DNA of 10,114 bases from a virus. Its lineage: Duplodnaviria; Heunggongvirae; Uroviricota; Caudoviricetes. The DNA lies in IMG/VR virus record IMGVR_UViG_2609460125_000008; one strand, 5' to 3'. The notes beneath the pieces were generated by a model. That model worked only from the letters and a program-made list of their open reading frames with translations, was not told the origin of the DNA and did no database searches. This document shows, piece by piece, positions 3,030-3,340 of the stretch (the stretch's first letter is position 1; the number at the start of each line of letters is the position of its first letter). A program made the translations under genes and the position numbers.

Positions 3030-3104
3030 TGGAGCGGGCAGCGGGAATCGAACCCGCATCATCAGCTTGGAAGGCTGAGGTAATAGCCATTATACGATGC
3101 CCGC
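3030..3104 (-). tRNA. tRNA-Gly (anticodon TCC)
   Basis: Minus-strand sequence GCGGGCATCGTATAATGGCTATTACCTCAGCCTTCCAAGCTGATGATGCGGGTTCGATTCCCGCTGCCCGCTCCA folds as a cloverleaf with anticodon loop CTTCCAA, a GTTCGATTC T-loop and a CCA end. Resembles E. coli glyT as I recall it. Confidence 0.85.
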
Positions 3105-3107
3105 ATA

Positions 3108-3183
3108 TGGTGCCGACTACCGGAATCGAACTGGTGACCTACTGATTACAAGTCAGTTGCTCTGCCTGCTGAGCTAAGTCGGC
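3108..3183 (-). tRNA. tRNA-Thr (anticodon TGT)
   Basis: GCCGACTTAGCTCAGCAGGCAGAGCAACTGACTTGTAATCAGTAGGTCACCAGTTCGATTCCGGTAGTCGGCACCA: 7-bp acceptor stem, anticodon stem ACTGA/TCAGT, loop CTTGTAA, CCA end. Confidence 0.8.
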
Positions 3184-3185
3184 GC

Positions 3186-3262
3186 TGGCCCACCACCGAG
3201 GACTCGAACCTCGCACCGTCAACTTAGAAGGTTGATGCTCTATCCGGATGAGCTAGTGGTGG
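3186..3262 (-). tRNA. tRNA-Arg (anticodon TCT)
   Basis: CCACCACTAGCTCATCCGGATAGAGCATCAACCTTCTAAGTTGACGGTGCGAGGTTCGAGTCCTCGGTGGTGGGCCA: acceptor stem CCACCAC/GTGGTGG, anticodon stem TCAAC/GTTGA, loop CTTCTAA, CCA end. Confidence 0.8.
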
Positions 3263-3263
3263 T

Positions 3264-3340
3264 TGGTGGCCCTTGCTGGACTTGAACCAGCGACCTGGCG
3301 ATTATGAGTCGCTCGCTCTGACCAACTGAGCTAAAGGGCC
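3264..3340 (-). tRNA. tRNA with CAT anticodon, most likely Ile2 (lysidine, ileX/ileZ-like) rather than Met
   Basis: GGCCCTTTAGCTCAGTTGGTCAGAGCGAGCGACTCATAATCGCCAGGTCGCTGGTTCAAGTCCAGCAAGGGCCACCA: anticodon loop CTCATAA; T-arm and acceptor closely resemble E. coli ileX as I recall it. Confidence 0.8.

Follow-up and report, generated by a model that had tools for sequence, protein, structure and literature searches.

A tRNA array between gene Q and the lysis genes of a lambda-like prophage, probably a self-promoted supply cassette

Four tRNA genes in a stretch of viral DNA of 10,114 nt (IMG/VR record IMGVR_UViG_2609460125_000008, Caudoviricetes), hereafter the window, were evaluated for integrity, origin, promoter conservation and codon match. 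The genes were located between the late antiterminator gene Q with its tR'-like terminator and the lysis genes of a lambda-like prophage. The array was best explained as a compact, self-promoted tRNA supply cassette, and a probability of about 55% was assigned to this explanation. All four genes were intact, two of them were copies of host genes, a conserved candidate promoter preceded them, and the codons which they read were over-used in phage genes. Clusters of tRNA genes downstream of Q have long been known in Shiga toxin (Stx) phages and other lambdoid phages, and the supply of rare-codon tRNAs is their usual explanation. The cluster class is therefore familiar, and the genes themselves are already annotated in public genomes by the Prokaryotic Genome Annotation Pipeline (PGAP). 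What is new is the anatomy of the host capture, the conservation of the promoter and the variation of the anticodon on a single tRNA body. The window adds a rare allele (Ile2-Arg-Thr-Gly) to this class, together with one slot in which the tRNA body was retained while the anticodon changed.

Integrity, origin and candidate promoter of the array

According to ARAGORN, exactly four tRNA genes were present in the window, all on the minus strand (slots 1 to 4 in Table 1). The spacers were 1 nt between the CAU and Arg genes, 2 nt between Arg and Thr, and 3 nt between Thr and Gly. A first-pass annotation of the window, made from the sequence alone, had proposed four minus-strand genes with CAU, UCU, UGU and UCC anticodons and 1-3 nt spacers, and had named a tRNA caller as the check. 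The coordinates, strand and spacing were reproduced by ARAGORN, which called all four genes with the expected anticodons, and the calls were backed by Rfam. The scores against the Rfam tRNA model RF00005 ranged from 56.4 to 70.5 bits, all above the gathering score of 29 bits. In the ARAGORN structures, the cloverleaves were intact, the 3' CCA was encoded, and a 7-nt anticodon loop with U33 was found in all four genes. The stems of slot 2 (7/4/5/5) were Watson-Crick throughout, and the few non-Watson-Crick pairs of slots 3 and 4 were those of host thrU and glyT. Moreover, PGAP gave Ile, Arg, Thr and Gly for these four genes in ten complete Escherichia coli genomes.

The decoding identity of the first two slots was explored from their identity elements. 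The acceptor stem of slot 1 was GGCCCUU/AAGGGCC and contained C4-G69 and C5-G68, which are TilS determinants. With the CAU anticodon, an ileX-like body and these two pairs, slot 1 had the sequence features expected of tRNA-Ile2. Slot 2 had a C1-G72 acceptor stem (CCRCCAY) together with A20, C35, U36 and G73; A20, C35, U36 and A/G73 are the identity elements of E. coli ArgRS. Since G73 was found in this form alone among the variants of the body, together with A20, C35 and U36, slot 2 of the window is probably a genuine Arg tRNA.

Two different origins were indicated for the four genes. Slot 4 was identical to K-12 glyT (75/75), and slot 3 matched K-12 thrU at 74/76 positions, the sole changes being U16C and U20C, both in the D-loop. 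Slot 1 matched Stx-phage ileZ at 74/77 positions and K-12 ileX at 69/77, and slot 2 matched Stx argN at 64/77 and host argU at 58/77. Capture from the host, which the first-pass annotation had raised for the whole cluster, held for Thr and Gly as copies of thrU and glyT; the CAU and Arg genes were not recent copies of ileX or argU. In the host, these genes belong to the thrU-tyrU-glyT-thrT set of the tufB operon (K-12), in which tyrU and a 116-nt spacer separate thrU and glyT. Slots 3 and 4 kept the order and orientation of the host genes, whereas tyrU, the 116-nt spacer and thrT were missing from the phage array. The homology between phage and host stopped at the tRNA ends. Furthermore, the Thr/Gly spacer TAT corresponded to the base that follows thrU in the host joined to the two that precede glyT, as expected if tyrU and the intergenic spacer were lost precisely. 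By sequence comparison, the array is a mosaic in which slots 1 and 2 are older phage-lineage relatives of ileZ and argN and slots 3 and 4 are host captures, and the latter pair provides a clear example of host tRNA genes that were captured and trimmed into a phage cassette. In relatives, the glyT-derived copies carried compensatory C6-G66 to U6-A66 changes, indicating selection on the tRNA structure.

A sigma-70-like candidate promoter was located immediately upstream of slot 1 (Table 1), and a consensus scan reported the overlapping reading TTTGCA-18-TATTAT at 3379-3350. Its conservation was evaluated via an IMG/VR scan anchored on the ileZ-like slot-1 gene, which gave at least 120 loci; the counts out of 120, here and below, are among the matches listed. 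A TTGNNN ... TATTAT motif was present in 120/120 loci. The spacer within the motif was 17 nt in 117/120, the distance from the -10 element to the tRNA was 9 nt in 113/120, and 15 distinct spacer sequences were observed. In the upstream alignment, the motif fell within the last ~45 nt before the tRNA, and the sequences farther upstream were unrelated between contexts. That the hexamers are conserved while the spacer between them varies speaks for a functional promoter. Q-independent expression of the array is thus probable, in addition to transcription by late read-through, and the presence of its own conserved promoter suggests that it is not simply a feature of the late transcript.

Codon usage and the proposed supply role

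For the supply cassette, the array would have been assembled from a phage-lineage pair of the ileZ-argN type and a copy of host thrU...glyT without tyrU and the intergenic spacer. The four genes would be transcribed as one precursor, from their own promoter and by Q-antiterminated read-through in lytic growth, and the precursor would be cut by host tRNA-processing enzymes into four mature tRNAs. These tRNAs would be charged by host synthetases, the CAU tRNA being first made an AUA reader by host TilS, and the capacity to read AUA, AGA (and AGG), ACA and GGA would rise. In the host, AUA, AGA/AGG, ACA and GGA are each served by one or two genes. The early and lysis genes would be the beneficiaries and, via the array's own promoter, possibly also other AT-rich acquired genes in the lysogen. 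The finding that the array remained intact in prophages eroded by insertion sequence (IS) elements, as well as the occurrence of an isolated second copy between IS elements, favours the supply cassette.

The match between the array and the codons of the phage genes was examined in the intact prophage of E. coli CFSAN029787 (98.5% identical to the window). The phage set comprised 12,841 codons from 31 late and 27 early genes, and the host reference 13,555 codons from 40 adjacent genes. The earlier statements that all four anticodons read A-ending codons and that at least AUA and AGA are rare in E. coli were borne out, the latter at 2.0 and 1.0 per 1000 codons in the host sample. When 59 codons were ranked according to the within-amino-acid ratio of over-use, ATA was first (4.6x) and AGA second (4.6x), followed by AGG, which is also readable by the UCU anticodon, GGA in fourth place (2.2x) and ACA in fifth (2.15x). 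The odds ratios were 3.7 for AUA, 7.4 for AGA, 2.5 for ACA and 2.0 for GGA (p 5e-9 to 8e-17), and the enrichment of cognate codons that the first-pass annotation had expected in phage genes was thus seen for all four. Its suggestion that the tRNAs supplement the translation of late genes or cargo was upheld in part: the cognate codons were over-used, but the enrichment was stronger in early than in late genes. Among the late genes, only the lysis genes just downstream were rich in AUA/AGA, with 7 AUA in the 177 codons of the lysozyme gene, 6 AGA in the 155 codons of Rz, and 3 AGA plus 1 AGG in the open reading frame (ORF) for a 209-aa protein. An ACA bias alongside tRNA-Thr(UGU) downstream of Q has been described for phage SfI (PMC3636060).

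Several observations weighed against a role in codon supply. The codon test was based on a close relative and a 40-gene host sample rather than on the window's own genome. The major capsid and tail tube genes contained no AUA and no AGA, and the most highly expressed structural genes avoided both codons. Among the IMG/VR loci, ACA usage was 0.257-0.259 in lambdoid phages without the Thr/Gly genes and 0.261 in those with them, and the corresponding values for GGA were 0.184-0.203 and 0.196. In addition, AAA, the codon of the commoner sister gene Lys(UUU), was abundant and not enriched. The proposal that array composition tracks the codon usage of each phage was rejected because ACA and GGA were used equally in phages with the classic CAU-Arg(UCG)-Arg(UCU) trio; codon demand therefore does not explain the difference of the window array. 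Codon demand explains the usefulness of these tRNAs, not why the array differs from its relatives.

Related arrays and alternative explanations

The ileZ-argN-argO trio, which the first-pass annotation had described as typical of Stx phages at this position, was found as the classic trio in ~58/120 related loci. Its further claim of a different composition also stood, as argO was replaced by Thr(UGU) and Gly(UCC). The Stx arrays (Stx2a_F349, 933W type) resembled the window array in that they follow Q/tR' and, in their case, precede stx and the lysis genes; further shared features were the first gene, the body of the second gene and the promoter motif. Slot 2 of the window reads AGA (UCU) and has G73, whereas the Stx gene reads CGA (UCG), and the spacers of 1-3 nt contrast with 7-14 nt in the Stx arrays. 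The third Stx gene is argO (Arg-UCU, GCGTTGT acceptor stem), whereas the third gene of the window is the host-derived Thr(UGU), followed by Gly(UCC). The window array agreed with the trio in position and in its first two genes and lacked argO, indicating a variant allele rather than the canonical trio. In ~29/120 loci, a degenerate slot 2, which was not called by ARAGORN, was followed by argO. This element was conserved over ~80-100 nt (L023, L016, L066) and had argN-like acceptor and T arms around an anticodon region that was rearranged and extended, GAGCAGACGACACGATAACAGGGTTGTTGG; it may represent a pseudogene or an unusual tRNA-like RNA. The order CAU-Lys(UUU)-Thr-Gly was found in ~15/120 loci, and the window type CAU-Arg(UCU)-Thr-Gly in 6/120.

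The Ile2-Lys(UUU)-Thr(UGU)-Gly(UCC) arrays seen in lambdoid prophages and phages of E. coli (strain S51, vB_EcoM-606R7, PhiR47_1) shared the four-slot layout, the spacers and the Thr-Gly module with the window, at 95% array identity. They differed in slot 2, where UUU was accompanied by C33 and U73 and the identity to the window gene was 85.7% (11/77 positions differ), and in slot 3, where Thr was exactly host thrU (U16, U20) rather than the C16, C20 form of the window. This type was present in ~750 genomes versus 10 for the window type. Among 5,426 complete E. coli genomes, the exact window array was found in 10, and the slot-2 family in 1,821. No paper describing an Ile2-Arg-Thr-Gly array was found in the literature on Thr, Gly and Lys tRNAs of lambdoid prophages, and the names ileZ, argN and argO gave only unrelated matches.

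The slot-2 body with its C1-G72 stem was seen with several anticodons, namely UCG in Stx phages, UCU in the window, UUU, and UGU once. An exact match to the UUU form was present in 279 genomes, and a further 474 had one at 95-99% identity; A20 is retained in this form, but positions 35 and 73 are both U. Every UUU or UGU form had C33 instead of U33, which is near-universal in tRNA. The UGU form was rejected as an established allele, as it was a singleton (one genome). Solitary slot-2 tRNA-Arg(UCU) genes were observed in two places: next to the dispersin gene aap on the 117-kb plasmid pJKHS016_1 of the enteroaggregative E. coli (EAEC) type (L136, 1501-1577), and in an IS-flanked chromosomal island of ATCC 25922 (L135, 1501-1577). 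Both were distant from any phage lysis module. In E. coli RMDEC332, the slot-4 glyT-derived copy (L003, 3132-3203) had the anticodon UAC ('Val'), A38G and a 1-nt acceptor-stem deletion. The loop change and the deletion disfavour a recoded tRNA, and this copy is probably decaying.

A further cluster at the equivalent position was the Asn(GUU)-Thr(UGU) pair of HK446, SfI, Sf6, ST64T and P21, which lies between Q/pR'/tR' and the holin gene and includes Thr(UGU), but has tRNA bodies unrelated to host genes. In HK446, the Thr anticodon stem was different, and the first tRNA started directly after tR'. The pair was observed from Q to holin in other prophages (L141, L143 and L145, ~6020-6180) and in phage HK446 (L138, 7098-7253). 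Lambdoid phages with Asn(GUU)-Thr(UGU) at the Q-downstream position have been reported (PMC3636060).

The foremost alternative to codon supply was counter-defence, which is a serious but secondary explanation for the window allele and was regarded as possible, although tentative. The cassette would mainly replace or outnumber host tRNAs destroyed by tRNA-cutting nucleases (P2 OLD, PARIS AriB, Gifsy-1 HepS), slot 2 would be a nuclease-insensitive body with a swappable anticodon, and the D-loop changes in the thrU copy would reduce recognition by AriB. The prime targets of PARIS AriB are Lys(UUU) and Thr(UGU), and Asn(GUU) is a secondary one; AriB cuts U36AAUC|A41 and also reads the D-loop U16, which thrU shares, and U16C 'significantly impaired AriB cleavage' of tRNA-Lys (PMC12409363). 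Gifsy-1 HepS cuts Thr tRNAs on sensing lambda-type tail tips (PMC13043305). Thr(UGU) is a target of OLD, AriB and HepS, and slot 3 has its anticodon in common with this nuclease-targeted host tRNA. According to recent work, OLD and PARIS act mainly on Thr(UGU) and Lys(UUU), which makes these prophage arrays a natural and testable system for the question of whether tRNA genes serve temperate phages in counter-defence in addition to decoding.

Several features of the array and its relatives were in line with counter-defence. Between the window thrU copy and its host counterpart, U16C and U20C are the sole differences, although it was with tRNA-Lys rather than tRNA-Thr that the effect of U16C was determined. 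With C16 and G39-U40-U41, the slot-2 body has no AriB UAAUC|A site, and it carries CAA/UUG rather than a paired CNG motif, the reported cleavage signature of P2 OLD. In relatives, this body carries UUU (~750 genomes) or UGU (one genome), always with C33. Asn(GUU) and Thr(UGU), both AriB targets, occupy the same Q-to-holin position in other lambdoid phages, and a preprint (10.64898/2026.07.10.737580) reports that phages are rescued from OLD by the HK446 Thr(UGU) encoded there but not by E. coli thrU. The composition of the array was also unexplained by codon usage. The tRNA-Lys, tRNA-Thr and tRNA-Asn of phage T5, which act against PARIS, resemble the arrays in the Thr-UGU anticodon (and Lys-UUU in the sister arrays), and the window shares the C16 D-loop with T5 tRNA-Lys; however, the T5 genes belong to large-phage tRNA islands, whereas the window has a four-gene prophage cassette, and its Thr keeps the host cleavage site.

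The anticodon arms spoke against counter-defence as the main role. Substitutions expected of a resistant tRNA were absent, the arm of slot 3 being that of thrU and the arm of slot 4 that of glyT. The window Thr thus retains the CUG/CAG OLD motif and the AriB site U36AAUC|A41, and the Gly copy, being identical to the host gene, cannot be resistant. Protection against P2 OLD by the window thrU copy was rejected as unlikely because the host anticodon arm is kept and extra E. coli thrU gave no protection from OLD in two studies. The sites of U16C and U20C are the most variable ones in tRNAs, and the two changes belong to a single haplotype, so that they may be neutral; the UGU variant of slot 2 was a singleton. 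Among the tRNA-nuclease papers covered, no nuclease with Arg(UCU), Gly(UCC) or Ile2 as its main target was found. A paired C-N-G at 28-30/40-42 was observed in both host-derived tRNAs, as CUG/CAG in thrU and CAG/CUG in glyT; tRNA-Gly(UCC) is not listed among the OLD substrates in the passages covered.

For the sister arrays, Lys(UUU) on the slot-2 body is a plausible PARIS-resistant tRNA, given the C16 of this body and its lack of both an AriB site and a CNG motif. A broader proposal, considered somewhat more doubtful, is that the Q-to-holin slot is a modular, self-promoted counter-defence and arms-race locus, in which the nuclease-insensitive slot-2 body would have its anticodon and discriminator base retuned among Arg(UCG), Arg(UCU), Lys(UUU, C33) and Thr(UGU), and U16C plus U20C in the thrU copy would provide escape from PARIS-type Toprim nucleases. 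If this proposal were true, the window would contain one allele of a temperate-phage arms-race locus, rather than a codon-usage aid. Counter-defence and a benefit to the lysogen are not mutually exclusive.

The explanation that the lysogen is the main beneficiary was judged unlikely. The tRNAs would then act in lysogenic conversion by improving the translation of AT-rich acquired genes, e.g., virulence genes of Shigella or enteroinvasive E. coli (EIEC), and would hence survive in a decaying prophage. The conserved candidate promoter is independent of Q, and the closest matches to the window were IS-eroded prophages with intact arrays, one genome having a second array between IS elements. The solitary slot-2 genes beside aap and in the ATCC 25922 island, as well as the frameshifted ipaH effector gene carried as cargo by the intact CFSAN029787 prophage, point in the same direction. 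However, decay has already set in in the isolated second copy, whose Thr gene has a changed D-stem and a 1-nt acceptor-stem deletion, and the persistence of the array may simply reflect recent prophage decay. If the cassette were active in lysogens, it could also influence how AT-rich virulence genes are expressed in Shigella or EIEC. Finally, it is very unlikely that Thr-Gly is a neutral passenger that was acquired when illegitimate recombination took place with the tRNA region of the host tufB operon and that has no function of its own: slots 3 and 4 are identical or near-identical to the host and some copies in relatives are damaged, but the trimming at the junctions coincides exactly with the tRNA ends, leaving spacers of 2-3 nt and a TAT from host flanking bases, compensatory stem changes occur in relatives, and the pair is kept across hundreds of genomes and also occurs alone, downstream of stx, in phage phi467.

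Genomic setting

The minus-strand gene order was replication genes, ninH, Q, terminator, four tRNAs, holin, 209-aa protein, lysozyme and Rz. The tRNAs are flanked by Q, the terminator and the holin gene on the same strand, in agreement with the location between Q/tR' and the holin gene given in the first-pass annotation. The coordinates of the features are summarized in Table 1.

Table 1. Features of the tRNA array and its surroundings in the window
Feature	Position	Strand	Evidence or detail
Late antiterminator gene Q, 126 aa	3540-3920	-	phrog_79 'anti-termination protein Q-like', E 3e-53; PGAP 'antiterminator Q family protein' in 98.5%-identical prophage
tR'-like intrinsic terminator, 9-bp hairpin AAACCCGCC/GGCGGGTTT + T6 run	3429-3453	-	ViennaRNA, free energy (dG) -18.9 kcal/mol
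Candidate sigma-70-like promoter, TTGCAG-17 nt-TATTAT	3350-3378	-	-10 ends 9 nt before first tRNA
Slot 1: tRNA CAU, Ile2-like, ileZ homologue, 77 nt	3264-3340	-	ARAGORN; Rfam 70.5 bits; PGAP tRNA-Ile
Slot 2: tRNA-Arg(UCU), argN-like body, 77 nt	3186-3262	-	ARAGORN; Rfam 56.4 bits
Slot 3: tRNA-Thr(UGU), thrU copy	3108-3183	-	ARAGORN; Rfam 69.8 bits
Slot 4: tRNA-Gly(UCC), glyT copy	3030-3104	-	ARAGORN; Rfam 64.9 bits
Long hairpin directly after tRNA-Gly, stem GUCUUUCAGUC / GACUGAAAGAC	2978-3023	-	ViennaRNA fold of 2940-3029, dG -22.7 kcal/mol
Class II holin, first lysis-cassette gene, downstream of tRNAs	2522-2737	-	phrog_9876, phrog_20, PF04971, PGAP
209-aa protein, function unassigned	1889-2518	-	PGAP of 98.5%-identical prophage
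Lysozyme	1290-1823	-	PGAP of 98.5%-identical prophage
Rz-like lysis protein	826-1293	-	PGAP of 98.5%-identical prophage

For Q, PF06530 was matched in loci L140 and L146. A consensus terminator scan of 2700-3600 reported none, and direct folding revealed the hairpin and U6 of the tR'-like terminator. The long hairpin after tRNA-Gly had no clean U-run 3' of it and was absent from the second array copy of L146; it is a possible processing site or weak terminator. For the ORF of the 209-aa protein, the only matches were to PHROG families without an assigned function (phrog_1085, E 1e-73). At its place between holin and lysozyme, sister prophages have either a shorter gene of the YdfR family or no gene.

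Positions 826-8708 of the window were 98.5% identical to the complete lambda-like prophage of E. coli CFSAN029787, which is integrated beside mlrA, and the window ends (1-825 and 8709-10114) did not match that prophage. At the left end, fragments of IS3/IS30-family transposases were observed immediately past Rz. The right end was a different mosaic, with a Gp49/RelE-like toxin and a helix-turn-helix gene followed by NinE and NinB. The best match to the window was CP097831.1 (locus L146), an IS-rich 4.5-Mb genome with 99.95% identity over 437-9647. In the genomes closest to the window, the prophage was eroded by IS elements and the array was still intact. The differing window ends and the IS-rich closest genomes suggest that the prophage in the window is probably defective.

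The second four-tRNA cassette of L146 (14789-15098) was located 11 kb from the first copy, isolated between IS elements. It began at the terminator T-run and promoter and stopped exactly at the Gly CCA, and its Thr gene had the D-stem change and the 1-nt acceptor-stem deletion described above. On the minus strand of the window, a C4 antisense RNA (8482-8569, Rfam 74.8 bits) and an isrK Hfq-binding RNA (8594-8670, Rfam 58.1 bits) were observed in tandem, upstream of or overlapping a Rha/Ant-type regulator gene. This region (8482-8670) looks like a P1/Gifsy-style antirepressor control region.

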